Origin: Spirochaetales bacterium | GTDB lineage: Bacteria > Spirochaetota > Spirochaetia > JAFGXN01 | NCBI GenBank assembly: GCA_016936615.1 | Contig: JAFGXN010000007.1 | Coordinates: forward strand, 28,575-92,574 | DNA length: 64,000 bases | Direction: 5' to 3' | Part shown: positions 8,668 to 55,542 of the stretch, piece by piece | Numbering within the stretch: the first letter of the stretch is position 1 | Layout: each line of letters starts with the position of its first letter | Position numbers and translations under genes: made by a program | The notes under the pieces: generated by a model | What the model was told of the DNA's origin: nothing | Database searches by the model: none | What the model saw: only the letters and a program-made list of their open reading frames with translations

Positions 8668-8712
8668 TATTCAGTTTTTAAAATGAAATTATCCTAACAA
8701 ATGGAGGCTTAT

Positions 8713-9594: not shown

Positions 9595-9600
9595 CAAAAG

Positions 9601-14216: not shown

Positions 14217-14224
14217 AAACTCTC

Positions 14225-19013: not shown

Positions 19014-19014
19014 A

Positions 19015-19575: not shown

Positions 19576-19864
19576 TTTTTTCTCCTTCTTACGCGAAAGG
19601 AAAAACCGCCTGCAGGTCGATTTAACCACGGCTCTAGCAAAGTATCCTGACTCACAGGCAATTCCGCAGACACCTTCCCGATTTCTCAGTGGCATAGATC
19701 TACATCTTCCTGAATACAGTTGCGCGACAGTGCAGGATTCTCACCTGCTTCCATTGAACTAGAGCTAACGCAATACTAACAATATATTGAAATCTATTCA
19801 ATACAGTATTGACAATTCAAACCACATCTATTTAAAGTATTACTAATAAAGTTTAGGAGTAAAA

Positions 19865-20389
19865 ATGTCAAACAAAATTTTTTCAAAGGTTAACAAAGCG
19901 ATTTACTATTCAGAGAAGGGTAATCCAAAAAAGTGCTACTCAAAACTAAAAAAGCTCGACAAGAAATATCCTGATAATGAATTGATAAACTTTAATATGG
20001 CTGTAGCATGTGAAAAGCTTGAAAAAAACACAAAGGCAGAGTTCTTTTACAGAAAGGCATTAGCTCTTTGTCCTGACAATTCCGAGACACTAAACTCTCT
20101 TGGCGCTTTTCTAATAAGAAAAGGAGAGCTAGCTGAAGCAAGGTCTCTTCTCTCTGAAGCTGTCAACATAGACAAGACAAAGGCTATCTATTGGAACAAC
20201 CTCGGTGTCGTTAATTTCTTGCAGACTGACTATCAGGCAGCAGTAGGAAATTTCAAGATTGCCTGCGCTATCGATTCTGAGAATCCTGATATCTGGTATA
20301 ATCTACGCGACTCATATGAAGAGATTGGTGAAAAAGAACTTGCAAAGCAAGCAGAGAAAAACTACCAAAGACTTACAGGTGAACAATGA
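19865..20389 (+). CDS. TPR-repeat protein
   Basis: Three or four tetratricopeptide repeats (AEFFYRKALALCPDN..., YWNNLGVVNF...). Confidence 0.8.
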   Translation: MSNKIFSKVNKAIYYSEKGNPKKCYSKLKKLDKKYPDNELINFNMAVACEKLEKNTKAEFFYRKALALCPDNSETLNSLGAFLIRKGELAEARSLLSEAVNIDKTKAIYWNNLGVVNFLQTDYQAAVGNFKIACAIDSENPDIWYNLRDSYEEIGEKELAKQAEKNYQRLTGEQ

Positions 20390-40606: not shown

Positions 40607-40687
40607 AGGCTACCTTCTCTACTAAATATTCCTAACATTAACTATAGTTGATTGATATTAAAAAATAAAATTTTTCTTCCAAATTTC

Positions 40688-42412
40688 TCAAAAAATTCTA
40701 TTTTTCACTACTTTTCTTGCTAAAAGAAGAGACGCAATCTGCAAAGAATAGGCATCACAGCCATTCTCAAGATAATCGGCTAAATCCTTAGCATGCGAGA
40801 AAATTGTACCTTGTGAAAAACCCTTAGCTTCAAGCCGTAGGGGATCTAACTCGAGAAATTCCGCATAATCTTGCGTCGAATTGCTGCGATGGCGGAGGAT
40901 TGAATGACATCCTTCAGGGGATATTACAGAAAAAAAGGAAAAATCCAACATGTAGAGATTTTTTTCTGAAGCTAGAGCAATTGCGCCGCCGCTTCCACCC
41001 TGGCCGGTTACGAAGGTGAAGACTGGAACTCTTGCATTTCCAATCCTGCCTGTCAGCTCGGCGATTATGCCGGCACTGTTCTCCTGCTCGGCGCGCGCCC
41101 CCGGAAAGGCGCCTGGAGTGTCAACAAAGCAGACTAACGGGATATTACAGAACTCAGCCTCACTGAGAATCCGCAAAATTTTACGGTAGCCTCCTGCATT
41201 TGCCATAGAGAAATTATATTCGAGGTTCTCGTCCCAGTTTTTTCCTTTGTTAAAATAGACGACAAAGAAAGGTAGCTGGCCGATAAAGCCGACTCCGGTG
41301 AAGAGAGCCTTATCGTCGCAAGATACCCTGTCGCCGTGAAGCTCAAAGAGGCTTGAAAATACAGAATTTGCAATCTGCGATGAATGGATATGAGACTGGG
41401 AACGGATAAATTTCAACAGATCCAATGAAGTTTTATGCTGAGAAAAAAACTCATTCCGCCGCGGTAATCTATCGCCGAGGAAGTCAGCCTTCCGCCTGCG
41501 CAGATTGCTCAAGTTCTCCCGCCGCAGCTGATTTCTCGCCGGCAAGTGATACCGCTTAGAAAATGTATAGACATAAAGAAGATTCTTCAGCGCGGCAGGC
41601 AGATTCCTGCGATGTAGAACCATGTCCACCTTGCCGCAGGTCAAAGCCCCTTCTGCAGATTGAATAAATGGATCAATCTCCTCGCCGATAGTGTCCCGAA
41701 TGACAGAAGGACCAGCAAAGCCGACAAACGCGCCTTTTTCTGCAATAATAATATTCCCAAGACTCGCAACGCTTGCGGTAATCCCCCCCGAAGTCGGATT
41801 AGTCATCACTACGAAGAGAGGAATCCCCTTGCGCCGCATTAGAATGCTGTTAGCCGACGCCGTGCGCATAGCCTGAAGCGAAGCAATCCCATCCTGCATC
41901 CTCGCACCGCCGGAAGCAGTAAAGACAACAAGCGGCAGAGACTTGCGGATTGAACGCCTTGTAATTTTTTCCAGAACAAGACCTTCTAAATGACCAAATG
42001 ATCCGCCGATAAAATCAAAGTCCATAATCGCAAAGCAGAGCCTCATCCCCGCAAGCCTAGCCTCGCCGGCAAAAATCGCAGAACCAAGACCTGACTTTTT
42101 CCTTGCAGAATCTAAATCTTCTATATAGTTAGGAAAAATTGACTGAACCTTCTCATGAGAGAGCAGCGCCGAAATATTCAGAGGTCGCACCGAACCAGCA
42201 TCAAATGTCATCTGAGCCCGTGCAAGTGCCGGAACCCTGAAATGATAATCGCAATGAGGACAAATATAGGAATTTTCCTGCACAGCAACTAGCGCCTTGC
42301 AGGATTTGCATAAAATCTGCTGATCCATAGACAAAATGTACCACAAAGACGTGTTTTTAAAAATATCAAAGTTGTTTTTTTTGCTGAAAAGATTTAAACT
42401 ATCCCCAATCAA
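40688..42412 (-). CDS. Acetyl-CoA carboxylase carboxyltransferase, fused beta (AccD) + alpha (AccA) subunits
   Basis: N-terminal AccD Zn-ribbon (CKSCKALV...CPHCDYHF) and AccD core (MTNPTSGGITASVASLG). C-terminal AccA core (FVDTPGAFPGARAEQENSAGIIA...VTGQGGSGGAIALA). Confidence 0.8.
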   Translation of the reverse strand: MIGDSLNLFSKKNNFDIFKNTSLWYILSMDQQILCKSCKALVAVQENSYICPHCDYHFRVPALARAQMTFDAGSVRPLNISALLSHEKVQSIFPNYIEDLDSARKKSGLGSAIFAGEARLAGMRLCFAIMDFDFIGGSFGHLEGLVLEKITRRSIRKSLPLVVFTASGGARMQDGIASLQAMRTASANSILMRRKGIPLFVVMTNPTSGGITASVASLGNIIIAEKGAFVGFAGPSVIRDTIGEEIDPFIQSAEGALTCGKVDMVLHRRNLPAALKNLLYVYTFSKRYHLPARNQLRRENLSNLRRRKADFLGDRLPRRNEFFSQHKTSLDLLKFIRSQSHIHSSQIANSVFSSLFELHGDRVSCDDKALFTGVGFIGQLPFFVVYFNKGKNWDENLEYNFSMANAGGYRKILRILSEAEFCNIPLVCFVDTPGAFPGARAEQENSAGIIAELTGRIGNARVPVFTFVTGQGGSGGAIALASEKNLYMLDFSFFSVISPEGCHSILRHRSNSTQDYAEFLELDPLRLEAKGFSQGTIFSHAKDLADYLENGCDAYSLQIASLLLARKVVKNRIF

Positions 42413-43290
42413 TGAAAATTTTTGTATTTCCAGGACAAGGCGACTCTCTTGAGCTAGAGGATATCCTGACTTTCGCAGGAGAAGAGTTCTTCGAAGAGCT
42501 TTTTCCTAATGAAAAATTACGACAAGCCCTGACTAGCGGAGAAATTGCGCCAGATTATTTTCAGTTTTTCTCATTTATTCACCAGATTGCAGCTGTGAAG
42601 GCTTTAGCCGGGCGCGGAGTCGAGCCAGATGTGGTTGCAGGCTTCAGCTTCGGAGAGTTTGCCTCCTACTGCACAGCTGGGATTCTCAGCTTCGAAGAGT
42701 GCGTGCGATTAGTTCTGTCGCGCAACCAGATTGCCAATCAGCTTGGCTGCAAAGATGCGCAGATGATGGCAGTTGTCGGGCTTAGCATTGGAGAGATTGA
42801 AGCTTTTGTAGAAAAATTCACACTCGATATCGAGATTACAAATTATAACACCTCGAAGCAATTTGTTATTGCAGGAAAAAATGCAGAACTCGCACGCTTT
42901 CAGGAACTTTCCGGTGCGGCAGTGGCGATGCTCAATCTGCCAGTCGCCTACCACAGCAGAACAATGGCAGCGGCACAGGAGGCTTTTGCAGAGGAAATCC
43001 GACAGTGCAAATTCTGCCAGCCACAGAAGATGATCCTCAGCAGCGTCTCCGGCAGATTGATTGACGATGCAGACGAAGCTAAGGAGCTGCTGCTGGTTCA
43101 AATGACTTCGCCGCTGAGATGGAGCGAGGCTTGTGCAACAATCGGGATTCTGGCGCCGGAGAGGATTTTCTTCCCGGGAGATGGGCGCAAAGTGCGGAAT
43201 ATTTGCCGCAAGAACAGGGTCGCAGGAGAGCTGATAAAGTGCGGCAGATTGGCGGAGTGCGCCACGGCAAGCGAGGTAGCAGATGACTAG
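42412..43290 (+). CDS. FabD-like acyltransferase (malonyl-CoA:ACP transacylase family) with variant active-site motif
   Basis: FPGQG start, active-site nucleophile in GFSFGE (canonical GHSLGE), downstream LNLPVAYHSR. Divergent from accDA, with ATGA overlap into the next gene. Confidence 0.7.
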   Translation: MKIFVFPGQGDSLELEDILTFAGEEFFEELFPNEKLRQALTSGEIAPDYFQFFSFIHQIAAVKALAGRGVEPDVVAGFSFGEFASYCTAGILSFEECVRLVLSRNQIANQLGCKDAQMMAVVGLSIGEIEAFVEKFTLDIEITNYNTSKQFVIAGKNAELARFQELSGAAVAMLNLPVAYHSRTMAAAQEAFAEEIRQCKFCQPQKMILSSVSGRLIDDADEAKELLLVQMTSPLRWSEACATIGILAPERIFFPGDGRKVRNICRKNRVAGELIKCGRLAECATASEVADD

Positions 43291-43576
43291 ACGTGGAGAG
43301 GTAGAATTTGAGAGCGGCGATGCGATATTCAGGGAACACTTCCCCGGGAACCCGGTCGTGCCGGGATCGTTCTTGATTGATTTTTTTGTGGAAAAAATTA
43401 AAGAAGATTGCAGAAAATGCAGATTTTTTACTATAGAAAAATTCAAATTTATAAAATTTCTCCAACCTGCAATCTACGAATGGGAGATTGAAGGTCGCGA
43501 CGGCGGGAAATTCATTTGTTTAATCCGAAAAGATGGTATAATATTCTCGAAGGGTACAATTACGGTGGGAAAATGA
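43283..43576 (+). CDS. Short FabZ/FabA-like hotdog-fold dehydratase
   Basis: HFPGNPVVPGSFLIDFF matches the FabZ active-site region (HFPG.P..PG). Only 97 aa, so the N-terminal about 30 aa of a canonical FabZ are absent. Confidence 0.5.
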   Translation: MTRRGEVEFESGDAIFREHFPGNPVVPGSFLIDFFVEKIKEDCRKCRFFTIEKFKFIKFLQPAIYEWEIEGRDGGKFICLIRKDGIIFSKGTITVGK

Positions 43577-44292
43577 TGGAATTTACAGGAATGACAGTGC
43601 TTATAACTGGTGCAAGCTCGGAAATTGGAATGGAGATTGCGCGGACGCTGGGAGATTGCGGGCTGAAGGTCATTGCGACTTGCCGCGGAAAGAAGATTGA
43701 TGGGCTGAAGGCTGCACTTGGCGATGGAGTTATCGTAAGTGAGCTGGATTTTGCGATGCCTGAGACTTTCGAGAAATTTGAGAACTACCAGATTGATTAT
43801 CTGGTGGATATTGCACATTCTGAGTACGAGTCGCTGATTGGCTTCTCGCAGCAGGCTGAGGTGGAGAGTTACTTCGCTCAGAACCTGGTCAACAAGATTG
43901 GATTCCTTCGCATTGTCGAGAAATCTATGATCAAGGGAAAATTCGGCCGCCTGCTCTATATCTCGTCAACGGCAGCCAAACGGCAGAACCCGGGGCAAAG
44001 CTTCTACGCGGCTTCGAAGCTGGCGATGGAGCAGATCTACCTGGGTATCGGGCTGGAAGCTGGCCGCAAAGGGCTGAGTTCGTTAATCCTTCGCCCCGGA
44101 TACATTGAAGCTGGACGGGGCAGACGCTTCACCGATGCTCTTGGCGGGAAAGTTGAAAAGCAGAAGATAGTCGCGCCAGCCGAGTTGGCCGCCAGTGTCG
44201 CCTTCTTCTTAAGCAACGCCGCACGGAAGATCTCCGGAACAATTATCACGATGGATGCTGGTATGAGTGCGGGGAAGAATTTTTATGGATAA
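43573..44292 (+). CDS. Short-chain dehydrogenase/reductase, FabG-like 3-oxoacyl-ACP reductase
   Basis: Cofactor-binding VLITGASSEIGMEIA, catalytic S...YAASK triad region, PG motif (RPGYIEAG). Confidence 0.8.
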   Translation: MMEFTGMTVLITGASSEIGMEIARTLGDCGLKVIATCRGKKIDGLKAALGDGVIVSELDFAMPETFEKFENYQIDYLVDIAHSEYESLIGFSQQAEVESYFAQNLVNKIGFLRIVEKSMIKGKFGRLLYISSTAAKRQNPGQSFYAASKLAMEQIYLGIGLEAGRKGLSSLILRPGYIEAGRGRRFTDALGGKVEKQKIVAPAELAASVAFFLSNAARKISGTIITMDAGMSAGKNFYG

Positions 44293-44325
44293 TAAGGGAT
44301 ATTATAAATACATAGGAGAAAATAT

Positions 44326-44781
44326 ATGATAAGAAGATCAGCCTTTGAAGGTAAAATGAAAATAAAAGAGTACAAGCGGAGCCCGTTACTGTATGTCTAC
44401 TTGATGCTGCTGGAAATACTCTCTTTTGGAATATGTATTCTTATGCTATTCTTAGGAGCAGATAGAGACGGAGTATTTTTCAGTGGAATATCAAACGGTC
44501 TGCTACTTGTATTTCCGTTCATAGGAATTTTATACTATATATCAGATAAAAAAATCCCTTACCTGACAATTTTCAATGATACTCTAATTGTAAATTGTAA
44601 TCCCTACTGGCCAAGCAAGATTCTCGAAATCTCACAAACGCAAGCTACAAAAATAAAAAAAGGCGTTTACCAGATGGGATATGACATTGTTCCGGTGAAA
44701 ATAAAACTCAGAAGCTTCAAGAGGAAGCAACGCAACGAAATTGAAAGCTTTCTTGATAGGCTTTGTGTTAGAGAGAGATAG
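44326..44781 (+). CDS. Small membrane protein (2 TM + cytoplasmic bacterial PH-like domain)
   Basis: Two hydrophobic helices followed by a about-70 aa domain. The architecture is shared with the next two genes. Confidence 0.35.
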   Translation: MIRRSAFEGKMKIKEYKRSPLLYVYLMLLEILSFGICILMLFLGADRDGVFFSGISNGLLLVFPFIGILYYISDKKIPYLTIFNDTLIVNCNPYWPSKILEISQTQATKIKKGVYQMGYDIVPVKIKLRSFKRKQRNEIESFLDRLCVRER

Positions 44782-44913
44782 GGAGTACCAACAATAGTTG
44801 AAGCATACCATGGCTAAATCAAATTTCTGATAAGGCTATATTCATAGACAAAATTTAAAATTTTCATTAAACTATTTGAAGATCAAAGATTATCTCAAAA
44901 GAGAGAGGAAAAC

Positions 44914-46128
44914 ATGCAGGAATATAAATTTTCATCGACGGAAAAAGTGTTTGTAGCTATCACTTCACCAATAATAATTGCATTAGGAGCAGGTTTCTGG
45001 CTTTCTCCTCTGAAGGATAAAAGCCTGGCAGGGCTAATATTTATTCTCGCAATAATTTTTATCTTCGGATCCTGCTCAATTCTAGCTATCGTAGAGGCTT
45101 TCAAAACAAAACTGGTAATCGAAGACGATAAAATTATAAAAACAGGAATATTCAGAACAACAACATTGGATTTCAAGGATATTGACGGCTTCTCAAAAAA
45201 CATACTTTATACAGAGATTATATCAAAAGAAAAAAAACGCAAAATAATCTTAACAAACCACTACTCAAATATACCAGACCTCCAATCTTTTCTTTCACAA
45301 AACTTCAAAAATCTTGATTCAACTGAAAATAAAGAGAAAGGAAGCTCGTTGTTTGTCACAAATTACAAAGAAATAAAATATATAAAAAAAGAGTTTCTGA
45401 AAAATAAAGAATTTGGGAAAAACTCTAATGAAGTAATGAGAAGATCTGAAAAAACTAAAAAATTTACAGAACCTTTTAATTTAATAGCATTTGCTGCCTT
45501 CATTGCACTGCTGATACTGAGAGGAAATCCAATTATAGTGATGATCAATATTTTTATCCCCATAATAGCTCTTTTCATTTCTGTAAAAAGCAGAGGGTTT
45601 ATAACAATAATAAAAGATAAAATAACGAACCAACCTACACTTTCTGGAGCAATAGTTGGGAGTCCATTTCTTCTTTGCATTTCAGTTTTCATGTCAGGAT
45701 ACAATGTCTATAGTTATAAAGCAATATGGTTACCTCTCATTATAATTTCAATTACAGGATGTTTTACAATTATAAAAATATACAAGCCGATGAGAAAGGA
45801 AAGCAGAAAAGCGAAAGTTTTTTGCCTAGCTGCAGGCTCAATTTTAATTGGCGCATACCTTTTTGGTGCGGCTATTCACATTAACTGCACTTTTGATATA
45901 AAGCCAGACGAAATTATAACAGAAAAAGTCCTTGAAAAAAGGAGAATTAGAGGTAGAAAAAGAACATCATATACAATAACTGTTACGGATTGGGAAAATG
46001 AGACCGAGGTCATAGAATTAGATATATCATCAAGACAATTTTACACTCTAAAAGAAAACAGTAATGTAAACATAGTTCAGAAACAAGGACTTCTAGGCAT
46101 CCCATGGTGCTACGTCCAGAGAGAATAG
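44914..46128 (+). CDS. Polytopic membrane protein with an inserted PH-like domain (paralog family)
   Basis: 2 TM + KLVIEDDKIIKTGIFRTTTLDFKDIDGF domain, then about six more TM helices and a C-terminal soluble tail. Confidence 0.4.
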   Translation: MQEYKFSSTEKVFVAITSPIIIALGAGFWLSPLKDKSLAGLIFILAIIFIFGSCSILAIVEAFKTKLVIEDDKIIKTGIFRTTTLDFKDIDGFSKNILYTEIISKEKKRKIILTNHYSNIPDLQSFLSQNFKNLDSTENKEKGSSLFVTNYKEIKYIKKEFLKNKEFGKNSNEVMRRSEKTKKFTEPFNLIAFAAFIALLILRGNPIIVMINIFIPIIALFISVKSRGFITIIKDKITNQPTLSGAIVGSPFLLCISVFMSGYNVYSYKAIWLPLIIISITGCFTIIKIYKPMRKESRKAKVFCLAAGSILIGAYLFGAAIHINCTFDIKPDEIITEKVLEKRRIRGRKRTSYTITVTDWENETEVIELDISSRQFYTLKENSNVNIVQKQGLLGIPWCYVQRE

Positions 46129-46136
46129 AAATGATC

Positions 46137-46934
46137 TCAATAAAGAACAAACGAAGCCACCCCAATATATAGAATTAACAGAAATATTGTCAATGGCAAA
46201 AAGCAAACCATGGTATTACTGTTTCCTGCATATATACGATTCTTAAAATCCTGAGCAAGAAAAAAGAAGAATGCGCCAGCCAAAACAATTTCCGAATATA
46301 CAAAAACTTGCAAAGTAAATAAATCATCAATAACGTAATACATCTTTATAAAAATACCTGTGGCTATCAATCCTGAAATTATAGTAAAAAACAATGCTGC
46401 AAATTGCCAAAATCTTAGCCTTTTCATTGCTTTTTTCTTATTTTTTTCTATATTACGAAGAATAGATTCGCCATTCTCCAGAATTCTTGACTGAAGAATA
46501 GCCAGAAATTCATCCTGCCGCTCCAATCCATATATCATAAACTTAGAACCCTTTATCCTCACTTCAATCTTTGAAAGCACACTCATAGGCCAATGAGTCC
46601 GAACAGAAAGAATATCCTGAACTCTGATTCTTGAGATGGAATCCTTTCTCAAATCACGAATTTCCAGAGTATTTGAAAAGATAGAAACGCTCACCCTCTG
46701 ACTTTTTTTTGAGAGAAAGACAATAGAACAGATAATAGCAAAAAGATCAAACAATAAATAATAAAGAAAATTACCACGCATATCCTTATTTGAAATCAGT
46801 AGATAAGTCGCGAAAAAGAAAGGTAAATAAATCGAAACACACACGTTCAGAAAAATTTTTTCCCATCGCTTCATAATTGCCGACTCCGATGTGCGAAATT
46901 CGGCAAAATCAGTTTCATTTGTATAATTATTCAT
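46137..46934 (-). CDS. Membrane protein, 2 TM + PH-like domain + 3-4 TM (paralog family)
   Basis: Same architecture as the two preceding genes (VSVSIFSNTLEIRDLRKDSISRIRVQDI). Confidence 0.4.
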   Translation of the reverse strand: MNNYTNETDFAEFRTSESAIMKRWEKIFLNVCVSIYLPFFFATYLLISNKDMRGNFLYYLLFDLFAIICSIVFLSKKSQRVSVSIFSNTLEIRDLRKDSISRIRVQDILSVRTHWPMSVLSKIEVRIKGSKFMIYGLERQDEFLAILQSRILENGESILRNIEKNKKKAMKRLRFWQFAALFFTIISGLIATGIFIKMYYVIDDLFTLQVFVYSEIVLAGAFFFFLAQDFKNRIYAGNSNTMVCFLPLTIFLLILYIGVASFVLY

Positions 46935-46971
46935 GGATACCTCTTTGATAAAAATCTAATATGATATTCGG

Positions 46972-48045
46972 CTATTCTAGTTCCTGCCAGGAAATATACA
47001 TACATGCGACAAAAACTTCCCCCCTAATAAAACGAAAGCCAACCCAATAAGAAAAAGCGGGCTCCTCATAAACAAACCTGTCAGTAAATTCCTTAGTTTT
47101 AAGATCATAAATCAACCCCTCATCTAGCAAAGAAATATATAATTTTCCATTATACTCTTGAACCTGAAAGGCCTCAAAATAAGGATTTGCATATTTTTGT
47201 AAATTAACAATAGATTGAAACTCAAGTTTTTCAAAATTAAATTTATAAATTGAGCTAACAGAAGCAATAAAAGGATGATTTTCTAGATGTCTCCTTAAAA
47301 CAGAACAATACTCAGACGGGAGAGGTTTAATATAAGCAATCCCCAAGGAATCATCATATAGTAAATATTCATCGTAATAATAAAACGCCCCAATTATAAC
47401 TGCATAATATTTATCTACACACAGAACCTTACTATAAGAAGTGCTAAAATTCATAAATTCGTAAACTTCAGATTTAGAATATAAAACAATACTCGACTGG
47501 TTCTCTTCGACCTCTCCAATACTTTTATATTCTTCTTGGCAAAACTTATCATTAGAAATAATAAGCCGCAAGACTTCTCCAGATTTAGACTTTACTATCA
47601 GCTGATCTGAATCGGACACTAAAATTTTATCTACATCAGCAAAACTATCAATAACTTCAAATTTATAATTCTGATAATCCAGAATCTCTAACTTCAAATC
47701 CTCTTCAATTCTTTCAGCCCTTATAAATTTTGAATTCTCTGTTATACCAATCACATGCTGTCCATCAAATAAAAAATTATTAGTTGAATCATATATCGTA
47801 TTTTTTTCAAATTCACAATACTGGGTAAGCATATACCTAAAATTATCATCTTCACAATCAAAATAATCTTCTAGATATGGTATTTCTTCACTTTTCTTAA
47901 GCCCCTGATCAAAATTATAAACATCTCTCCCAATTTTATGCTCAATCAAATTACCTTGAACAGTTAAACAAGTATTAATCATAAATAATAATAGAAATAT
48001 CTTCTTCATAAAATCTATCCTACAACAGCAGTAGTTTTCATTCAA
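46972..48045 (-). CDS. Hypothetical secreted protein
   Basis: N-terminal signal peptide (MKKIFLLLFMINTCLTVQG). No recognisable domain. Confidence 0.4.
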   Translation of the reverse strand: MNENYCCCRIDFMKKIFLLLFMINTCLTVQGNLIEHKIGRDVYNFDQGLKKSEEIPYLEDYFDCEDDNFRYMLTQYCEFEKNTIYDSTNNFLFDGQHVIGITENSKFIRAERIEEDLKLEILDYQNYKFEVIDSFADVDKILVSDSDQLIVKSKSGEVLRLIISNDKFCQEEYKSIGEVEENQSSIVLYSKSEVYEFMNFSTSYSKVLCVDKYYAVIIGAFYYYDEYLLYDDSLGIAYIKPLPSEYCSVLRRHLENHPFIASVSSIYKFNFEKLEFQSIVNLQKYANPYFEAFQVQEYNGKLYISLLDEGLIYDLKTKEFTDRFVYEEPAFSYWVGFRFIRGEVFVACMYISWQELE

Positions 48046-48333
48046 TATTTTTTATAGGAATTTTCGTTATAATAACTATTTATATATAGAAAGCTACTAA
48101 TTATTACAAAAAAATATTTCTTTATATCTCTTCACCAATCCTTTCCCATTTGACAATTCCCAAATTCACAGATATTCTGCAAATATACGCACCAGCCTTA
48201 ATTCACGAATCCAGAACTTAAATCAACTGAAATCATTTTTGCTACAGACCTGCGCTTTTTACTGTTAGGAGGTAGTCATGAACCGGAAGGAAAGGACAAA
48301 CCTTACCAGTGTTCTGATGGCTTTTTTATAAGA

Positions 48334-49106
48334 ATGGGAGCTAACACACAGAAGATGAACCGCGATGGGATTATCGAGTTCCTTCAATCAGAGGGGCAAA
48401 TCAGATTTGAAGAACAGTTGCACAGGAAATATGAAATAGAGCGGGATTTTGTTCCTCAGAAGTTGAGATCTTATCTTGAAAGAGCAGGAATAGTCTCGAC
48501 CCTCGATGACGAATCAATATTGCTTAACCTCGGCGTTGCAACCAAAGTGGGTGACAAGCTACGAATGAACAATGCAGGTGTACTTTTTTTTACAGAATCT
48601 ACACAGCTACTCTGTGAACAAGCAACAATCACCTGTGGAGTCTTCGATGGCACAGCTCGAATAAACGTTTTAAACCGAAAGGACTACTCGCTTGACATGA
48701 TTACAAACATCAACAACACCCTACACTTTATCAAGCAGGAGCTACGAGTAAAATACGAGATGCAGGAGCACCCGAACCTCTCTTCGAATTTGGAAGCTTC
48801 TACACAATAATCTTCCCCCGCCCTGGCTACGCAGCAAAAAACAAGCAAACAAGCTCAGGAGTTGATTCGGAGAAAAGTTCGGAGATATCTATGACTAAGT
48901 TGGGAGAAAAGTTGGGAGAAAATGAACTGAAAGTGATAGACGAAATCTACAAAAATAAAAAAGCCTCTATTTCATCAATTGCCGACGCAACAAACCTAAG
49001 CACCACAGGAGTCGAGAAAATAATTGCCCGCCTGAAAAACAAAAACATTCTAAAACGAGTCGGTCCATACAAGGGTGGACACTGGGAGATCGTCGATAAG
49101 GCGTAG
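48334..49106 (+). pseudogene. Decayed Schlafen/AlbA_2-type ('divergent AAA', RecG-C-like) transcriptional regulator, split into two ORF fragments
   Basis: ORF 48334-48810 carries the tail of an AlbA_2 domain (NAGVLFFTES...ITCGVFDGTAR). ORF 48891-49106 is a stand-alone C-terminal wHTH module (ISSIADATNLSTTGVEKIIARLKNKNILKRVG). Intact members carry both plus an ATPase-like middle region in one about-450 aa protein. Confidence 0.4.
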
Positions 49107-49177
49107 TAAAAAGAATTAATTCATTTTTTTATTTACAAAAAAATTATCATCACTTACAATGATGCAAGATCAGAAAC

Positions 49178-50053
49178 ATGGAGAACAAAGTGAAAAGAAT
49201 TTCAGGACTAGCTATCTTTTTTTTAATAATAACAAGACTACATGCGTTTGACATTAACAAAGATAATTTCTCAATAAAAGTTGACATCGGAGAATACCTT
49301 GTAGCCAATGACGAAGAAATTTTTCTAATAGAATGGTTTGAAGAGATTCCAACGATTATAAATAAATCTAAGAGACAAGATAAAATTTTAAATGCGAATG
49401 GTTATTCATCTATCAGCATAGGCGGGCAAGAATACTTTATCGTTGAGCTAAATGGTAGATTTTTTTCAACACAAAAGAGCGATTATATTAAAGAAGACTT
49501 TACCTTTTTAGAGGGGCAAGTTCAGGTAAAAAAAGTAAATGCTAGTTCCGAACTTTTAGAAAAATCCACAAAAGGAGAAACTCTATACAGGGGTATATTT
49601 CCACTGTTTAGATTAACTGCTGAAAAACCATTTGGATATTTTATCAATTATAATGGACTTCCTTGGGTTCCAGATGTAAAAAGAGACAAAATTCCATATC
49701 TAGATATTGAATTAGAAGAAGCAGTTGAAACAATTAGTCTCATCCCTGGATTTTTGGATTTCAAAAGACAAAACCTTTTTTATGATAACTCCAGAGTAAA
49801 ATCAATTGAAATAACAAATTTTGAGACAAACAAAAGCCTCGGTGTATTCATTCTTGAAGATAAAATAAAGTACACAACAATATGTCTAAGCGAGGAAGTA
49901 AAGAATTTCCGCATTAAGATTATAGATACTTACCCAGGGAAAAAATACAATGATCCTTGCATATCATCAATAATCTTTAATTTTGGTAAAGAGACAGGCG
50001 ATTACGGATTGAAAGATCTGGAATTGTTTAAAAACATGGGAATTCTAAAATAA
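49178..50053 (+). CDS. Hypothetical secreted protein
   Basis: Signal peptide (ISGLAIFFLIITRLHA). No recognisable domain. Confidence 0.45.
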   Translation: MENKVKRISGLAIFFLIITRLHAFDINKDNFSIKVDIGEYLVANDEEIFLIEWFEEIPTIINKSKRQDKILNANGYSSISIGGQEYFIVELNGRFFSTQKSDYIKEDFTFLEGQVQVKKVNASSELLEKSTKGETLYRGIFPLFRLTAEKPFGYFINYNGLPWVPDVKRDKIPYLDIELEEAVETISLIPGFLDFKRQNLFYDNSRVKSIEITNFETNKSLGVFILEDKIKYTTICLSEEVKNFRIKIIDTYPGKKYNDPCISSIIFNFGKETGDYGLKDLELFKNMGILK

Positions 50054-50122
50054 AAACGTATAGAACTGATCTATAATTTTTCTATGATGGCTAGTCGTGA
50101 AAGATTCTAAATTTATTCCAGC

Positions 50123-50290
50123 TCACGCCCCAATCTTTGGATCTGCTATCAATACCTCTGCGGGAATACCAAGACCGGAGTGCAATTGACGAATCATGGA
50201 TAGCGATAAACTTCTTTTGCGATTCAGAACCTCTGAGACCTTGCTGCGACTACCAATATATTGAACTAAATCAGAATGAGAAAGCCCCAT
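50123..50290 (-). pseudogene. Remnant of a HigA-type (XRE/HTH_3) antitoxin gene, C-terminal HTH part only
   Basis: Unlisted 55-codon reverse-strand ORF: MGLSHSDLVQYIGSRSKVSEVLNRKRSLSLSMIRQLHSGLGIPAEVLIADPKIGA. It matches the conserved HigA HTH (..LSQSDLA..LGVSRSHVSEILNGKR.LT.EMIRKLHK.LGIPADVLL). The about-40 aa N-terminal part and any HigB partner are missing. Confidence 0.4.
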
Positions 50291-50300
50291 TCACCCATTC

Positions 50301-50329
50301 TTGACACTCCAACAATTTTAAAAGATAAT
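50301..50329 (+). promoter_or_regulatory. Putative sigma70 promoter for the ACP-KAS-AOS operon
   Basis: TTGACA-17 nt-GATAAT, about 95 nt upstream of the ACP start. Confidence 0.35.
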
Positions 50330-50425
50330 ATATAAAATAGCTGTTGCAGCGACTCCGCGCGGCGGGGGTTTTGGATTTTCAGCATCGCAGATGCATTTTT
50401 CAGGAAATCAGATACAGGAGAAAAT

Positions 50426-50791
50426 ATGGACACCGAGGCAAAGATTATTGAAATGATTGCGGAGATTCTTGATTTGGATCAGGAGGAGATCTCTGGAGAA
50501 AGTTATATGGTCAGGGATTTGGAGGCAGAGTCGATTGATCTGCTGGAGCTCGCAGTTGAGCTTAATTCAGCGTTTAAGATGAAAATCGACGAGAATATGG
50601 CTTTTTTGAAGACCCTAAGGGTGCACATCAAAGAGGCTGCGGATAACGGAAGCGATGCCGCAGATGCAGTAGCTGAGAATTTTCCATACTTGAGCACGCA
50701 GAGAATTAAAGATATATTGCTAGAGCTTGCAAACGGCCCTGTGCTGAAGGTCAAGGACATCGCAAACTACATCCAGTACAAAGGAAATTAA
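50426..50791 (+). CDS. Acyl carrier protein (dedicated, with C-terminal extension)
   Basis: Phosphopantetheine attachment context DLEAESIDLLELAVELNSAF (compare [20 protein letters not shown]). 121 aa versus about 78 aa for housekeeping ACP. Confidence 0.7.
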   Translation: MDTEAKIIEMIAEILDLDQEEISGESYMVRDLEAESIDLLELAVELNSAFKMKIDENMAFLKTLRVHIKEAADNGSDAADAVAENFPYLSTQRIKDILLELANGPVLKVKDIANYIQYKGN

Positions 50792-51433
50792 ATGCTAGAT
50801 AAAATTATCCGCGAACGACGGACAATCAGAGAATATACTCAGGAAATTCCTCCCCTTGAATTGAGAAAAAAGGTCGCAGAGGCTGGGTTATACGCCCCCA
50901 CTGCGACAAATTCTCAGCCATTCTTGATTCGAGAACTGAGCAAAGACGAGGTAGCTTCGATACAAAACCTGATGGAGAAGCGCTACGAGGAATTACTTGC
51001 TGCAGCAGAGAGTTGCGAAGACAAGAAAGTCGCAAAAGTCATAAATTTCTATTGGAGATTCAGCAAGCCAGTTCTGGCAGCACCGATTGTGTGGCTTTTT
51101 CTTGGGGAAAAAACTCCAAGCTTCACGCAGAGGCTTCAAGATGCTGGCCTTATCTCCTACACCGAAGCTAAGGCTAGCTCAGCCATGAGGATCTCCCTCG
51201 GATGTGTAATCCAGAACATGCTGCTCAAGGCAAAGGAGCTGGGACTAGGCTCCGGCGTCTACAGTGCACCATTTATTTTTCTTGAAAAAGATGAATCCGC
51301 CCTACTCGAAGACCTCGGCATCGACAGCCAGAAGTACTTCCCAGCAGAGTTTCTGACCATTGGCTATCCGGCAGAGAATCCTGACCGGCCGCACAGTAAA
51401 ACACTCGATGAGGTTTTTAAATACAATGAATGA
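50792..51433 (+). CDS. Nitroreductase-family flavoprotein
   Basis: N-terminal RRTIREYT and ...APTATNSQPF motifs typical of the nitroreductase/NADH-oxidase fold. Translationally coupled to the ACP gene upstream and the KAS gene downstream. Confidence 0.65.
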   Translation: MLDKIIRERRTIREYTQEIPPLELRKKVAEAGLYAPTATNSQPFLIRELSKDEVASIQNLMEKRYEELLAAAESCEDKKVAKVINFYWRFSKPVLAAPIVWLFLGEKTPSFTQRLQDAGLISYTEAKASSAMRISLGCVIQNMLLKAKELGLGSGVYSAPFIFLEKDESALLEDLGIDSQKYFPAEFLTIGYPAENPDRPHSKTLDEVFKYNE

Positions 51434-52595
51434 AAAAGTCGTGGTCAGCGGCGTTGGATTTGTCCTCAATGATGTTCAGAGCCTAGCCGACATCGCAGAA
51501 AAATATGATAATCCCTCTGTAAATTTTAACTTTTTCACTACGAAAAGCGGAGAGACCTTCCCGACACTACCCATCGCTGGCTTCGACCTCGCATCCATCG
51601 TCGGCAGGTGCAAGAACAAGCGCTACCTCCCGAGGGCAGGACAGTTCGGCCTTGCTGCGGCAAAGCTGGCAATCAACGATGCAAATCTATCCGAGGATGC
51701 GCTAACTGGTGCCGGACTCTTCTCCGGGCTAGGCCCCAACCTCGAAGAATCATACGAAGATGCAGAGACAAAGGCACTCTGGCTGCTTAATTTTTTACCC
51801 AATACACTCAATTCAGTAATCACAAGCCAGTTCAAGATTCACGGCGGGGCTAACACCTACGGCAACGCCTGTGCAGCCTCAACCCAGGCAATCGCAGAGG
51901 CCTTTGAGAAGGTAAAATTCGGACTCCTCCCGCTTGCAATCGCTGGCGGCGCTGACTCGCGCATCAACGAATACGGAATATCAAGCTATGCAAGCGCACA
52001 GGCGCTCTACAAACTCGAATCCCGTCCCAATCTACCCGACTCGAACTCGCCCGACACAGCAGACTACGCAGTCGACTACAGGCCAATGACAGCTACACCG
52101 CGCGGATTCGTCCCCGGCGAAGGCTCGGCCTACCTCGTAATCGAGACAGAGACGTGCGCAATCGCCCGCGGTGCATCAATCTACGCTGAAATTCTCGGCT
52201 GCGGCTACTCCAGCGACGGCTACAACATGACCGCCCCCGACCCGGACGGGTTCTACGCGGGCAAAGCTATCGAGATGGCTCTCTCCCGCGCGGGCCTCAC
52301 TCCATCACAGATCGATTGCGTCTCCTGCCACGGCACCGGAACCAGCCGCAACGACGAAATGGAACAGAAATTGCTAGAATCCATCTTCGGCAGCAGACAG
52401 CCTGAAATTTTCACCTTCAAGAAGATCTTCGGCCACCTTGCCTCAGCCTGCGGCGCAGCCGAAACTGTCGCGACAATTGCTATGCTGAATAGTCAGTCAA
52501 CAAGCCCGCGCGCGACAGCTCTGATTCAGAACTTCGGCTTCGGCGGCCAGAACACAGCCCTAATCATTCGAAAATACGAGCGCCGCAATGGATAA
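51426..52595 (+). CDS. Beta-ketoacyl-ACP synthase I/II (FabF/FabB-like)
   Basis: Active-site Cys in GGANTYGNACAAS and the two His motifs (CVSCHGTGTSRND, KKIFGHLASACGAAE). ATG at 51426 overlaps the upstream stop (ATGAATGA). Confidence 0.85.
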   Translation: MNEKVVVSGVGFVLNDVQSLADIAEKYDNPSVNFNFFTTKSGETFPTLPIAGFDLASIVGRCKNKRYLPRAGQFGLAAAKLAINDANLSEDALTGAGLFSGLGPNLEESYEDAETKALWLLNFLPNTLNSVITSQFKIHGGANTYGNACAASTQAIAEAFEKVKFGLLPLAIAGGADSRINEYGISSYASAQALYKLESRPNLPDSNSPDTADYAVDYRPMTATPRGFVPGEGSAYLVIETETCAIARGASIYAEILGCGYSSDGYNMTAPDPDGFYAGKAIEMALSRAGLTPSQIDCVSCHGTGTSRNDEMEQKLLESIFGSRQPEIFTFKKIFGHLASACGAAETVATIAMLNSQSTSPRATALIQNFGFGGQNTALIIRKYERRNG

Positions 52596-53004
52596 GTTCA
52601 CCAGCGGGCGCGACTCGATTTTTTTAATAGCAAAAATACGGAAATTCACCCCAACAATGATGAAAGTTAGTTCAAAGCCTCTTTCCGGCAGGAGCTGGGA
52701 GGTCTGCGAGCTGATGGCACAGACCGGCTCATTCCACGCGCGCATCCTCACCAAGTTTGAGCGGCAATCTTTCTTCCTGCAAGTCAAAGAGCTACGGCTG
52801 CCTGCACGAATCCACGGCAGATGCACCGCGAAGGCTCGCCTGATTGAAAGCTCAGAGACAAGTTTCAAGTACGAGGTGAAAATCTCGCGTCACTGCTATG
52901 GAATTTTTTTCTTTAGTACATTAAAATATGAGAACTTCAACGAAGCAGAGCAGTTAAGCGACTTTTACAAAGGGCAGGTAAAAAAGATATGGAAAAAATT
53001 CTGA
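52588..53004 (+). CDS. Hypothetical protein (138 aa) embedded in the KAS-AOS operon
   Basis: In frame, GC-rich like its neighbours, and overlapping both flanking genes. No recognisable motif. Confidence 0.4.
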   Translation: MDKFTSGRDSIFLIAKIRKFTPTMMKVSSKPLSGRSWEVCELMAQTGSFHARILTKFERQSFFLQVKELRLPARIHGRCTAKARLIESSETSFKYEVKISRHCYGIFFFSTLKYENFNEAEQLSDFYKGQVKKIWKKF

Positions 53005-54116
53005 GGCGTCTAACAAATGAGTTGGAGGCGCTTGCACAGCAGGGGCTTTACCGCAGACCGGTTCTACGCGACAATTCGAACCGCGATTTTATAAATCTCT
53101 CGTCAAACGATTATCTTGGACTTGCCTCTTCGAAATTTGCAAAAAAGGCGCTAATTGCCTCAATCAAGAAGAACCAGGTCGGCGCTGGCGCGTCACGGCT
53201 TGTTACCGGGAATTTTAAGAGCATAACCGATGCGGAGCGGGAGTTTGCGCAATTCTTCAGATATGAGGATTGCCTTTTTTTCAGCAGCGGCTTTCAAGCC
53301 AATACAGGGCTAATCTCAAGCCTATTTTCCAGCGATGACTGCGTTTTCTTTGACAAACACGTGCACTCTAGCATGGTCTTCGGACTCGAGGGATCACCTG
53401 CGACGATTAAATCGTTCAAGCACAATGACTTAGAACACTTAGACAAACGGTTAGAAGCCTGCAATGTCGCTGGACAGAAGGTTGTCCTGACAGAATCATG
53501 TTTCAGCATGGACGGGGATTGCCCCGATTTCGAAGCGCTCGCAAGATTAAAGAAAAAGCACAACCTATTCGTGATTGTCGATGAGGCCCACTCTTTCGGT
53601 CTTCTCGGCGAAAAAGGTTGCGGGCTTGCCGGTGATGTGGCTGATATCGCAGTCGGCACCTTTGGAAAAAGTTATGGTCACTACGGGGCTTTTCTACTTT
53701 TACCCACACATATCAAAGAGTACCTGATCAACACCTCGCGACCACTAATCTACACGACAGCACTACCCCCCTACTTCGGCGATTTTGCTCTCCGCCTGCT
53801 ACGAAAATCAGCGACAATGGAAAAAGAACGAGCCACCACGCTAGAACTTGCCGCCTACTTGAAAAAGCGACTTCAATCTGAAGGCTTCTCAGTGGCAGGC
53901 GATGCACACATTCTGGCAATCGAAATCGGCAATGAGGCCCGTGCTGCAGAAATATCAAAGCAGCTGTTAGATGCAGGCTTCATGGCTGGTGCAATCCGCT
54001 TCCCGACAGTTCCATTGAATAAGGCGATAATCCGTGTAAGCTTGAATTGTGGACTGAAGAGAACACAGATTGAAAAATTCTGTGATTATTTGGCTCAATA
54101 CATTAGAGATATTTGA
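52989..54116 (+). CDS. Alpha-oxoamine synthase family PLP enzyme (BioF / serine palmitoyltransferase / KBL / CqsA-like)
   Basis: N-terminal LSSNDYLGL, PLP-lysine motif TFGKSYG, and D..H (VIVDEAHSFG) motifs. Confidence 0.8.
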   Translation: MEKILRRLTNELEALAQQGLYRRPVLRDNSNRDFINLSSNDYLGLASSKFAKKALIASIKKNQVGAGASRLVTGNFKSITDAEREFAQFFRYEDCLFFSSGFQANTGLISSLFSSDDCVFFDKHVHSSMVFGLEGSPATIKSFKHNDLEHLDKRLEACNVAGQKVVLTESCFSMDGDCPDFEALARLKKKHNLFVIVDEAHSFGLLGEKGCGLAGDVADIAVGTFGKSYGHYGAFLLLPTHIKEYLINTSRPLIYTTALPPYFGDFALRLLRKSATMEKERATTLELAAYLKKRLQSEGFSVAGDAHILAIEIGNEARAAEISKQLLDAGFMAGAIRFPTVPLNKAIIRVSLNCGLKRTQIEKFCDYLAQYIRDI

Positions 54117-54173
54117 CATATTAGAACATTAATGGTAATATTTCCACATACCATAAGGTATTAGGGGAAAAAA

Positions 54174-55496
54174 ATGTCAACAACTACTACAATATCAACA
54201 AAGATCGGAAATAGAATAGTCGATGTCGAATGTCTGAGATTAACACCACAAGAGATAAATCTTTTTTTAACACCAAAGCTAGAATCTGACCACTTCACTA
54301 GCAAGGAAGACTATATGGAGAAGGTCTCACTTTGGCTGATTCCTGAACTTGCGGAAGCGGAATTGCAGAAGGAAGACTACAAATCCCTCTACTACTCGCT
54401 ATTGAGACTTCACCCGACGATGGAATATGAAAGACTAGAGTTCTGGAAGTCTCGTGGCTTTGAGCCAGATTATTGTGTAGAGTTTCAAGAACAGAGAACT
54501 AACACCTTTGCACCACGCCCGACAACTGCGAAGCAATTCCAGCAACAGCGGGGAAGAGCTGCAAATATTGCAGGGAAGCTTAGGGAAACTAATATAGAAG
54601 AACTTAAATTAAAGGTAAAAGAGGATGTCATGGGCCAAGACAAAGCTATCGATGCGATCTTTGACTGGCTCTACCTTATTGCAGGTGGTGCAACTAGCGA
54701 CAGGGCTAATCTTTTCTGTGGATACCTGATGGGACCATCTGGTGTGGGCAAGACCTCATTTGTCGAATCACTCTCTGCCCACTCCGGAATAAATTTCAAA
54801 CAATTCTCAGGCTCCGAATATCAGGAGGCCTACGATGCTAAACGCTTCCTCGGTTCTGCGCCAGGACTTGTCGGCTACGATGAAGAGGGCGGCCCGCTAC
54901 AGAAATTCGTAGCAAGATACCCTGACGGAATAATCCTCTTTGACGAGGCTGACAAAATGCACCCATCAATCTGGACAGCTCTAACCAACTTTCTCGACAA
55001 GGGGGTAATCCAGGACGGCAAGGGCAAAGATCTCTACTTCAATGGACTAATATTTTTCACAAGCAATATCGGCTACAATTTCTTCGACACTCAGATGTCT
55101 ATCGGCTTTGATAAAGAGAACAAAGCCGAGCTTGAAGAAAAAAGATTAAAAAAACTTATTGAAAAGCAGCTCCCATTCGAAATAATCGGACGAATTAACG
55201 ACTTTTTCCAATTTGAGAAACTTAGCAAAGAGGATCTGAACATGATTCTCGCTCAGACAATCAGCAAGAAGAACAACGCGCTGGTCTCAGGCAAGATAAG
55301 CCTCTGCCACTCAGCATGCAATTACATAATTGACAAGGCCTTTGACCCGAAGACAGGCGCGAGAAATCTCCACCACGTCTACGAGAAGGAGATTCTGCTC
55401 CCATTTATCAAGACAAGCCTGTCATCTGACAAAGAAAAATCGGTATTTGTAACTTACGAAGAGGAACAGTTAGTATTTGAGGATGTAACAGCATAA
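54174..55496 (+). CDS. Stand-alone Clp/Hsp100 D2-like AAA+ ATPase (AAA_2 + ClpB_D2-small) with a unique about-145 aa N-terminal region
   Basis: VMGQDKAIDAI sensor region, Walker A GPSGVGKTS, Walker B ILFDEADKMHP, arginine-finger/sensor-2 region, and C-terminal KTGARNL. No second AAA domain. Confidence 0.65.
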   Translation: MSTTTTISTKIGNRIVDVECLRLTPQEINLFLTPKLESDHFTSKEDYMEKVSLWLIPELAEAELQKEDYKSLYYSLLRLHPTMEYERLEFWKSRGFEPDYCVEFQEQRTNTFAPRPTTAKQFQQQRGRAANIAGKLRETNIEELKLKVKEDVMGQDKAIDAIFDWLYLIAGGATSDRANLFCGYLMGPSGVGKTSFVESLSAHSGINFKQFSGSEYQEAYDAKRFLGSAPGLVGYDEEGGPLQKFVARYPDGIILFDEADKMHPSIWTALTNFLDKGVIQDGKGKDLYFNGLIFFTSNIGYNFFDTQMSIGFDKENKAELEEKRLKKLIEKQLPFEIIGRINDFFQFEKLSKEDLNMILAQTISKKNNALVSGKISLCHSACNYIIDKAFDPKTGARNLHHVYEKEILLPFIKTSLSSDKEKSVFVTYEEEQLVFEDVTA

Positions 55497-55504
55497 AGAA
55501 GAGA

Positions 55505-55537
55505 CTGCCCCGAAGAGATTCAGGGCAGATTTTTTTT
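55505..55537. terminator. Intrinsic terminator between convergent genes
   Basis: CTGCCC-12 nt-GGGCAG stem followed by a run of eight T. Confidence 0.5.
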
Positions 55538-55542
55538 ATAAT

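Follow-up and report, generated by a model that had tools for sequence, protein, structure and literature searches.

Gene Content and Organization of the Cluster

A gene cluster built around an acyl carrier protein (ACP), a ketoacyl-ACP synthase (KAS) and an alpha-oxoamine synthase (AOS) was analyzed in a stretch of 64,000 nt from a metagenome-assembled genome (MAG) of a Spirochaetales bacterium. This stretch is called the window in the following, and all positions are counted from its first nucleotide. The features of the cluster are compiled in Table 1. The first-pass annotation of this DNA had described five translationally coupled open reading frames (ORFs), coding for an ACP, a nitroreductase, a KAS, an unknown protein of 138 amino acids and an AOS, as an operon of its own. 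All five were found on the + strand between 50426 and 54116 as described, the coupling can be read directly from the sequence of the junctions, and the assignment of the ACP, nitroreductase, KAS and AOS to their families was matched by Pfam in each case.

Table 1. Features of the cluster and of the DNA between its two halves.
Feature	Position in window	Strand	Evidence
accD-accA fusion (single protein with both the beta and the alpha half of the acetyl-CoA carboxylase carboxyltransferase)	40688..42328	-	Pfam ACCA 8e-55, Carboxyl_trans 2e-28
fabD-like malonyl-CoA:ACP transacylase, leads the + strand operon	42412..43290	+	Pfam Acyl_transf_1 2e-16
Small FabZ/ApeI-like hotdog protein, 97 aa	43283..43576	+	Weak Pfam FabA match; His motif HFPGNPVVPG
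Short-chain dehydrogenase/reductase (SDR), putative 3-oxoacyl-ACP reductase	43573..44292	+	Pfam adh_short 1e-19
Low-GC insertion, 6.1 kb, between the SDR and ACP genes	44293..50425		GC 0.33
Sigma-70-like promoter TTGACA-17-GATAAT, upstream of the ACP gene within the right edge of the insertion	50301..50329	+	Consensus scan 11/12; pattern match only
Dedicated long ACP, 121 aa	50426..50791	+	Pfam PP-binding 3e-7
Nitroreductase-fold flavoprotein, proposed enoyl-ACP reductase	50792..51433	+	Pfam Nitroreductase 3e-21
KAS I/II-type condensing enzyme	51426..52595	+	Pfam Ketoacyl-synt N 6e-16, C 4e-26
ORF138, hotdog fold, proposed dehydratase partner subunit	52588..53004	+	AlphaFold (AF2) model, Foldseek
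BioF-type 8-amino-7-oxononanoate synthase (AOS)	52989..54116	+	Pfam Aminotran_1_2 2e-51; NCBIfam bioF best family

The stop codon of the ACP gene (50789-50791) directly abuts the start codon of the nitroreductase gene (ATG 50792). The nitroreductase and KAS genes overlap by 8 nt (stop codon 51431-51433, ATG 51426), as do the KAS gene and ORF138 (stop codon 52593-52595, ATG 52588), and the overlap between ORF138 and the AOS gene amounts to 16 nt (stop codon 53002-53004, ATG 52989). The mechanically called ORF of the KAS begins at TTG 51360; its true start is likely the coupled ATG 51426.

These five genes make up the downstream half of a cluster of nine genes, the other half of which is located at 40688-44292. 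In two related spirochaete contigs (L001 and L002) the nine genes follow each other uninterrupted and in the same order, beginning with the divergent accD-accA fusion and continuing from the fabD-like gene to the AOS gene. The five-gene operon described before therefore stands as far as its genes are concerned, but not in its boundary, as 40688-44292 also belongs to the unit. The earlier suggestion that the SDR of this upstream block works in the same pathway is borne out by L001 and L002, in which the SDR gene adjoins the ACP gene. Within the proximal half of the window cluster, the fabD-like gene and the gene for the small hotdog protein overlap by 8 nt, and the stop codon of the latter overlaps the start of the SDR gene (ATG 43573) by 4 nt. 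The mechanical ORF of accD-accA extends to TTG 42412, and ATG 42328 is likely its start.

Several of the flanking genes are common to the window and L001, and genes on both sides are common to the window and L002. Since the flanks of L002 match on both sides, the locus has been inherited in place. A ClpB-like AAA gene (54174-55496) was considered as a further member of the cluster and rejected; it is present in L002 and absent from L001.

Related Loci and the Link to Biotin Genes

Related loci were collected by scanning GTDB, with one genome per species and the two most conserved motifs of the ACP as query, which yielded 36 cluster loci. They were annotated by BLAST against the proteins of the window and of a Syntrophobacteraceae genome (L003), with a probe for BioB and a Pfam-confirmed seed for BirA in addition. 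The core order hotdog protein, SDR, ACP, nitroreductase, KAS, ORF and AOS was found in about 35 other genomes, mostly from Desulfobacterota, and in the majority of these genomes it is placed between bioB/bioA and bioD behind a BirA operator. The same gene order in about 35 independent genomes is an arrangement far beyond chance.

The fetched stretches of 27 of the 36 cluster loci contain at least one of the genes bioA, bioB, bioD, and birA. When L003 is counted in, bioA is located directly upstream of the module in 14 loci and bioD directly downstream in 15, while bioB was found in 17 and birA in 11. L003 itself has the order bioA, hotdog protein, SDR, ACP, nitroreductase, KAS, an ORF of 151 amino acids, AOS, and bioD. 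Each of the seven core proteins of the window matches its positional counterpart in this cluster, with 30-48% identity and E values from 4e-11 to 1e-111. Upstream of the operon, the palindrome TGTNAACC-N14/15-GGTTNACA was identified in 23 loci, and it is read as the operator of BirA, because it sits between birA and bioB. In another spirochaete MAG (L026) the module has no adjacent bioA, bioB or bioD; a perfect operator lies 38 bp before its first gene, and birA is located two genes downstream. The operator and birA tie this stand-alone module to the biotin regulon within Spirochaetota.

Based on the homology and the gene order, the cluster is read as an early-biotin module. With a probability of roughly 80%, the operon is the spirochaete form of a Desulfovibrio-type cluster, which assembles the pimelate arm of biotin on an ACP of its own and then converts it to 7-keto-8-aminopelargonic acid (KAPA). 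It is most likely a rare variant of a known, biochemically undefined pathway and not a new lipid or signal system. What is new here is the phylum of the host, the presence of accDA and fabD at the cluster, and its separation from bioA, bioB, and bioD. The first-pass annotation had dismissed biotin synthesis, which is not supported, since the seven core genes are homologous to, and ordered like, those of clusters that lie between bioB/bioA and bioD behind BirA operators. The conservation of the gene neighborhood, which it had named as a check, points to biotin clusters and not to lipid or signal loci, as the 27 loci with bio genes show.

The atypical biotin cluster of Desulfovibrio reportedly has an earlier source in work by Rodionov from 2004. 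In D. vulgaris, randomly barcoded transposon sequencing (RB-TnSeq) identified a FabZ-like protein, an SDR, an ACP, a KAS, a second FabZ-like ORF, bioF and a nitroreductase as needed in the absence of biotin (Trotter et al., 2023; PMC10102598). According to the same study, the nitroreductase gene lies inside the cluster in Syntrophobacter (S. fumaroxidans), Desulfobacter, and other Desulfobacterota, and the phyla listed for the atypical cluster are Desulfobacterota and Chrysiogenetes only (PMC10102598). The D. vulgaris Hildenborough cluster (DVU2558-DVU2565, plus the nitroreductase gene DVU1220) and its nitroreductase-containing form in S. fumaroxidans and Desulfobacter agree with the window in their core genes and the order of these, with clear homology for every member, and all seven genes of the Desulfovibrio-type set are found in the window in that order once the insertion is discounted. 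In contrast to the D. vulgaris cluster, the host of the window cluster is a spirochaete, bioB, bioA, bioD, and birA are not adjacent, and a BirA operator is missing. Furthermore, the window adds the leading fabD-like gene and the divergent accD-accA fusion, and its operon is split by an insertion.

Two loci were found in Cloacimonadota MAGs: in L020 the full module comes after bioB and bioA, and L031, a short contig, has bioB, bioA and, of the module, the genes up to that of the nitroreductase.

Far from the cluster, at 19866-19895 of the window, the sequence TGTCAAAC-N14-GGTTAACA is one base off the pattern of the BirA operator, and none of 100 shuffles of the window matched so well. The site overlaps the start codon of an ORF for a TPR protein of 174 amino acids (19865-20389) and faces a divergent operon for a TonB-dependent receptor and ATP-binding cassette (ABC) uptake system (11372-19695, - strand). 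As a pattern match, it suggests that the host may have a biotin regulon of the BirA type.

The BioF-Type Alpha-Oxoamine Synthase

The AOS enzyme of the window scores highest with the NCBIfam model of BioF (TIGR00858, 324 bits), followed by 2-amino-3-ketobutyrate CoA ligase (KBL, 230 bits), serine palmitoyltransferase (SPT, 223 bits), 5-aminolevulinate synthase (ALAS, 203 bits) and CqsA (179 bits). Its best sequence matches in the PDB are 8-amino-7-oxononanoate synthase (AONS) enzymes with 175-188 bits, compared to 152 for KBL, 148 for SPT, 109 for CqsA, and 106 for cysteate acyltransferase. In the alignment to 1bs0, the residues His126, Asp198, His201, Lys227, and Arg337 correspond to residues 133, 204, 207, 236, and 349 of E. 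coli BioF, which we take to be the residues of the active site and of pyridoxal 5'-phosphate (PLP) binding. They are common to the whole AOS family and are no proof of substrate specificity. The enzyme is 61% identical to its counterpart in L001, 51% to that in L002 and 47-48% to those in L003, where it lies beside bioD, and in a further locus, L004. Its closest relatives outside the spirochaetes belong to Desulfobacterota, with 45-48% identity.

The products proposed in the first-pass annotation were a sphingoid base or aminolipid, a sulfonolipid, or an alpha-hydroxyketone of the CqsA/LqsA type. Pathways to such products would start from a long-chain acyl-ACP and from serine, cysteate or aminobutyrate. 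Bacterial SPT with its dedicated ACP and CqsA/LqsA have the same PLP-dependent AOS fold as the window enzyme and likewise join an acyl thioester to an amino acid in a Claisen-type condensation. SPT, CqsA and cysteate acyltransferase belong to the AOS family, and each of them gives a significant alignment. A dedicated ACP can also adjoin an AOS in bacterial sphingolipid loci. Nevertheless, products of this kind are hardly probable at all, since the window AOS scores lower for SPT and CqsA than for BioF in NCBIfam, and lower for cysteate acyltransferase than for AONS enzymes in the PDB, while the gene set as a whole corresponds gene by gene, and in the same order, to the biotin cluster. The neighborhood is not that of a sphingolipid or quorum-sensing locus either, as the Pfam scans of the window revealed no gene of the acyl-ACP synthetase, ceramide synthase or sulfotransferase type nearby. 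With the AOS best described as BioF and the gene set as that of a biotin cluster, these products are not supported. The idea on which they were based, that the AOS receives an acyl-ACP from an ACP and KAS dedicated to it and condenses this with an amino acid, is supported.

The genes pdxS and pdxT (SOR_SNZ and SNO families) are located at 8701-10158 of the window, so the host makes PLP, the cofactor of the AOS, by the route independent of 1-deoxy-D-xylulose 5-phosphate (DXP).

ACP, Condensing Enzyme and Malonyl Supply

The ACP carries the phosphopantetheine site DLEAESIDLLE and a C-terminal extension (...GPVLKVKDI..YI) which is kept across phyla. It is 46-56% identical to the cluster ACPs of L001-L004. 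In the alignment to KasB/FabF, the KAS keeps the Cys-His-His triad with the motifs ACAAS, HGTGT, and GH, and it is 40% identical to the KAS of the bio cluster in L003. The SDR shows 61% identity to its counterpart in L001, 43% in L002 and 34% in L003.

The accD-accA fusion keeps its divergent position in L001 (56% identity) and L002 (45% identity). Among the compared loci, a fabD-like gene at the cluster was found only in these two. In the intergenic region that separates accDA from the fabD-like gene (window 42329-42411, L001 5505-5587, L002 5286-5389), three blocks are conserved in all three contigs, namely AAAATGTAYCAYAA, AAGTTGT with a T run, and TTTAAACT. None of them is a palindrome of the BirA type; they may be promoter or regulator sites.

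The Nitroreductase-Fold Protein

The nitroreductase gene is located between the ACP and KAS genes in 26 other loci. The profile of the family matches best to the BluB-like protein 3eo8 (2e-29), also to members of the iodotyrosine deiodinase type, and furthermore to the C-terminal domain of FbiB and the enone reductase CLA-ER (4qlx, 6e-7). As the cluster encodes no other candidate for an enoyl reductase, and judging from these profile matches, a role of the protein in the reduction of C=C bonds is plausible. The first-pass annotation had already regarded it as a possible surrogate enoyl reductase, and the same hypothesis of a nitroreductase-fold enoyl-ACP reductase has been published for this system (PMC10102598).

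A scan of metagenomes with an alignment of the spirochaete nitroreductases returned only unrelated nitroreductases with at most 29% identity and no further clusters of the spirochaete type. In two loci (L004, 9062-11134, and L032, 9992-12064) only the triad of ACP, nitroreductase and AOS is encoded, without KAS, SDR, hotdog protein or adjacent bio genes. These minimal triads suggest a close cooperation of the nitroreductase with the ACP and BioF.

The Two Hotdog Proteins

The cluster encodes two small hotdog proteins. The first one, of 97 amino acids, belongs to a family with the motif HFPxxPVVPG, the histidine of which is invariant (31 of 31 sequences), and no conserved acid is found at the position of the FabZ glutamate. 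Its homologues in the related loci were recorded as ApeI-like.

The second one, ORF138, has no match in Pfam or NCBIfam, and Pfam scans of 29 members of its family returned nothing as well. A profile search of the family against PDB sequences gave no match, and the comparison with the small hotdog family by hhalign reached a probability of 11%. A word-index search returned two close homologues for ORF138 and two for the nitroreductase; in an exhaustive HMMER search of 1.84 billion proteins, the ORF138 family comprised 72 cluster representatives. An AlphaFold (AF2) model built from 66 sequences shows a single domain of hotdog topology with a predicted local distance difference test (pLDDT) score of 94.8. 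Foldseek assigned this model to the hotdog thioesterases (E 3e-6), and to FabZ with a template modeling (TM) score of 0.61-0.67 over about 135 columns. The 138-aa ORF, for which a profile search had been proposed in the first-pass annotation, matches no Pfam or NCBIfam family, and structure prediction gives it a hotdog fold. Invariant in its family are the FabZ-type Glu motif E-x-(L/M)-A-Q on the central helix, His50, and Arg52, and the His motif is absent.

In the public annotation, ORF138 is represented by a hypothetical protein of 96 amino acids (JXR63_00900) starting at Met43. All 138 residues are conserved in L001 (50% identity), and beta strands are predicted for residues 14-29. Based on this conservation and the predicted fold, the 138-residue form is favored over the annotated one. 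The counterparts are 131-138 amino acids long across L001, L002, and the window, and 151 in L003. The position of ORF138 in the cluster is that of DORF42491 in D. vulgaris.

In FabZ, each active site is formed by a histidine of one subunit and a glutamate of the other. The distribution of the His and Glu motifs over the two hotdog families, seen against the FabZ site, suggests a heterodimeric dehydratase with one complete site, and we propose from these motifs that the small hotdog protein and ORF138 would form such a split enzyme. In comparison to the FabZ homodimer and ApeI-ApeP, the small hotdog protein is ApeI-like, and histidine and glutamate lie on two hotdogs, as expected for a site at a dimer interface. 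ORF138 differs in having neither a Pfam family nor a match to a PDB sequence, and the heterodimer is a prediction. It is speculated that Arg52 and His50 of ORF138 bind the omega-carboxylate of the substrate.

An aryl-polyene (APE) or polyketide cluster was considered as well and rejected, as only the small hotdog protein is ApeI-like and the remaining APE cluster is absent.

The Insertion Between the Two Halves of the Operon

In L001 and L002, 8 to 16 bp separate the SDR gene from the ACP gene, compared to 6.1 kb in the window. The DNA inserted at 44293-50425 contains four ORFs without a Pfam family (151, 404, 265, and 357 amino acids), several of which resemble membrane proteins, as well as genes for an HTH_24 protein of 71 amino acids and a protein of 291 amino acids with a NADase_transloc-like domain. 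Additionally, a remnant of an HTH_3 protein (55 amino acids) lies at 50126-50290 on the - strand. No convincing flanking or terminal repeats of the insertion were found. A second interrupted operon was observed in a Deltaproteobacteria MAG (L035, 10345-16782), in which an ORF of 2145 amino acids lies between the ACP and nitroreductase genes.

The promoter-like site at the right edge of the insertion is followed, just 5' of the ribosome-binding site of the ACP gene, by two hairpins, a GC-rich one with a T run (50353-50377) and a small one (50382-50394). The segment from promoter to hairpins (50301-50425) could serve as a leader or attenuator, or it could represent a terminator that belongs to the inserted DNA. 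A scan of 40000-56000 with Rfam gave no match, so that no known riboswitch or leader is present there.

An operon inactivated by the insertion would be a decaying remnant in a host that lives on imported biotin. The 6.1 kb between the SDR and ACP genes fit this view, as does the terminator-like hairpin between the promoter-like site and the ACP gene. It is nevertheless quite improbable, because all nine ORFs of the window are intact and of full length in comparison to L001 and L002, their catalytic motifs are kept, a near-consensus promoter precedes the distal half, and the translational coupling is retained.

The guanine-plus-cytosine (GC) content of the cluster (40688-44292 and 50426-54116) is 0.48-0.50, compared to 0.375 for the remaining window. 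The orthologous clusters show no clear enrichment over their flanks, with 0.344 vs. 0.337 in L001 and 0.397 vs. 0.355 in L002. One possibility is that the cluster of the window was replaced in place by a copy from a relative of higher GC content.

Points Against a Role in Biotin Synthesis

Several observations weigh against the assignment of the cluster to biotin synthesis. As the first-pass annotation correctly stated for bioA, bioD, and bioB, no late biotin genes are nearby: the Pfam scans revealed none of bioA, bioB, bioD, birA, and bioY in the 64-kb window, nor were they found in the fetched parts of L001 and L002. A search for the BirA operator (TGTNAACC-N12-17-GGTTNACA, at most two mismatches) found no site near 42329-42411 or 50054-50425, and none is present upstream of the fabD-like and ACP genes in L001 and L002. 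The AOS, of which the first-pass annotation had asked whether it groups with BioF, does have BioF as its best NCBIfam family, but with 324 bits it remains below the equivalog cut-off of 426. The other enzymes behave similarly in NCBIfam: the KAS reaches 202 bits with fabF, accD-accA 211 bits with accD and 196 bits with AccA, the fabD-like protein 136 bits with MdcH and 126 bits with FabD, and the SDR 99 bits with FabG, all of them under the respective cut-offs. The nitroreductase is only about 30% identical to the cluster copies of Desulfobacterota in L003 and L004, and according to Foldseek ORF138 is as close to hotdog thioesterases as to FabZ. Furthermore, the insertion may have uncoupled the expression of the two halves of the operon. 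Finally, for no organism has any step of the pathway been demonstrated biochemically (PMC10102598).

With the same BioF model, the AOS genes of the clade that adjoin bioD score 329-336 bits and the Desulfovibrio one 301 bits, so falling short of the cut-off is characteristic of the clade. Of the 36 cluster loci, 9 likewise lack the linkage to bio genes, one of them from a Desulfovibrio, which means that adjacency to bio genes is typical of the family and not universal. As stand-alone modules occur in Desulfobacterota too, the missing late bio genes are weak evidence against biotin synthesis. Sequence beyond the window was searched for with the proteins at its ends, and only short Logan contigs lying inside the window were returned.

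The separation from bioA, bioB, bioD, and birA in the window, L001, and L002, the missing BirA operator and the gain of accDA and a fabD-like gene would also fit a module that was repurposed in this spirochaete lineage, with an omega-carboxy or short-chain alpha-amino ketone as end product that is used as such, e.g., as a signal or as the head group of a lipid. Its chemistry, with a dedicated mini-FAS and an AOS, would be unchanged. Among its members, the nitroreductase and ORF138 have diverged most, which would suit such a change. Against this, stand-alone modules are found in Desulfobacterota as well (L015, L016, L028, and L029), one of them in a Desulfovibrio, and the spirochaete module of L026 is under a BirA operator. 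Moreover, the AOS keeps scores and active-site residues like those of BioF, and all seven core genes are kept in order, so that repurposing appears unlikely.

Proposed Pathway and Comparison With Known Systems

For the preferred assignment to biotin synthesis, the following pathway is proposed from the gene content. The AccD-AccA carboxyltransferase would form malonyl-CoA together with a biotin carboxylase and a biotin carboxyl carrier protein (BCCP) supplied from elsewhere, and the FabD-like transacylase would transfer the malonyl group to the 121-aa ACP. The KAS would use malonyl-ACP both as primer, the free carboxylate of which is kept, and as decarboxylating extender. Two rounds of elongation would follow, in which the SDR acts as ketoreductase, the small hotdog protein (His) and ORF138 (Glu) as dehydratase, and the nitroreductase-fold protein as enoyl-ACP reductase. 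The intermediates would be glutaryl-ACP and then pimeloyl-ACP, formed without a methyl-ester disguise. The BioF-type AOS would condense pimeloyl-ACP with L-alanine to KAPA, and BioA, BioD, and BioB encoded outside the window would complete biotin.

The BioC-BioH pathway of E. coli follows the same logic, as two rounds of elongation lead from a malonyl thioester to pimeloyl-ACP for BioF. However, the window cluster contains neither a BioC methyltransferase nor an esterase of the BioH type, and dedicated enzymes with their own ACP replace the housekeeping fatty acid synthesis (FAS) that E. coli borrows. In the BioZ route of alpha-proteobacteria, a dedicated KAS III-like condensing enzyme makes the C7 dicarboxylate on ACP. 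The KAS of the window, in contrast, belongs not to KAS III but to the KAS I/II type, with a Cys-His-His triad, and is accompanied by a reductase, a dehydratase, and an ACP of its own.

More tentatively, and with a little less than even chances, the nine genes could be a self-contained miniature FAS leading from acetyl-CoA to pimeloyl-ACP without a methyl-ester disguise. Three as yet uncharacterized features would be involved: a nitroreductase-fold flavoprotein as enoyl-ACP reductase, a split FabZ-type dehydratase with its histidine on the 97-aa protein and its glutamate on ORF138, and a carboxyltransferase and malonyl transacylase of its own.

Implications for the Desulfovibrio-Type Pathway

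Pimelate synthesis of the Desulfovibrio type is known only from genetics, and no enzyme of the early pathway has been characterized. The cluster described here extends the range of this pathway to Spirochaetota, and the comparison loci add Cloacimonadota. It also represents a version which carries its own genes for the supply of malonyl-CoA and malonyl-ACP. Two mechanistic ideas can be tested on it, a hotdog dehydratase with split His and Glu motifs and an enoyl reductase of the nitroreductase fold. For the annotation of comparable loci, an AOS with its own ACP and KAS need not mean a lipid or signal pathway. If the cluster is indeed a self-contained miniature FAS, no system would be simpler for a reconstitution of the pimelate pathway of the Desulfovibrio type, which is still undefined.

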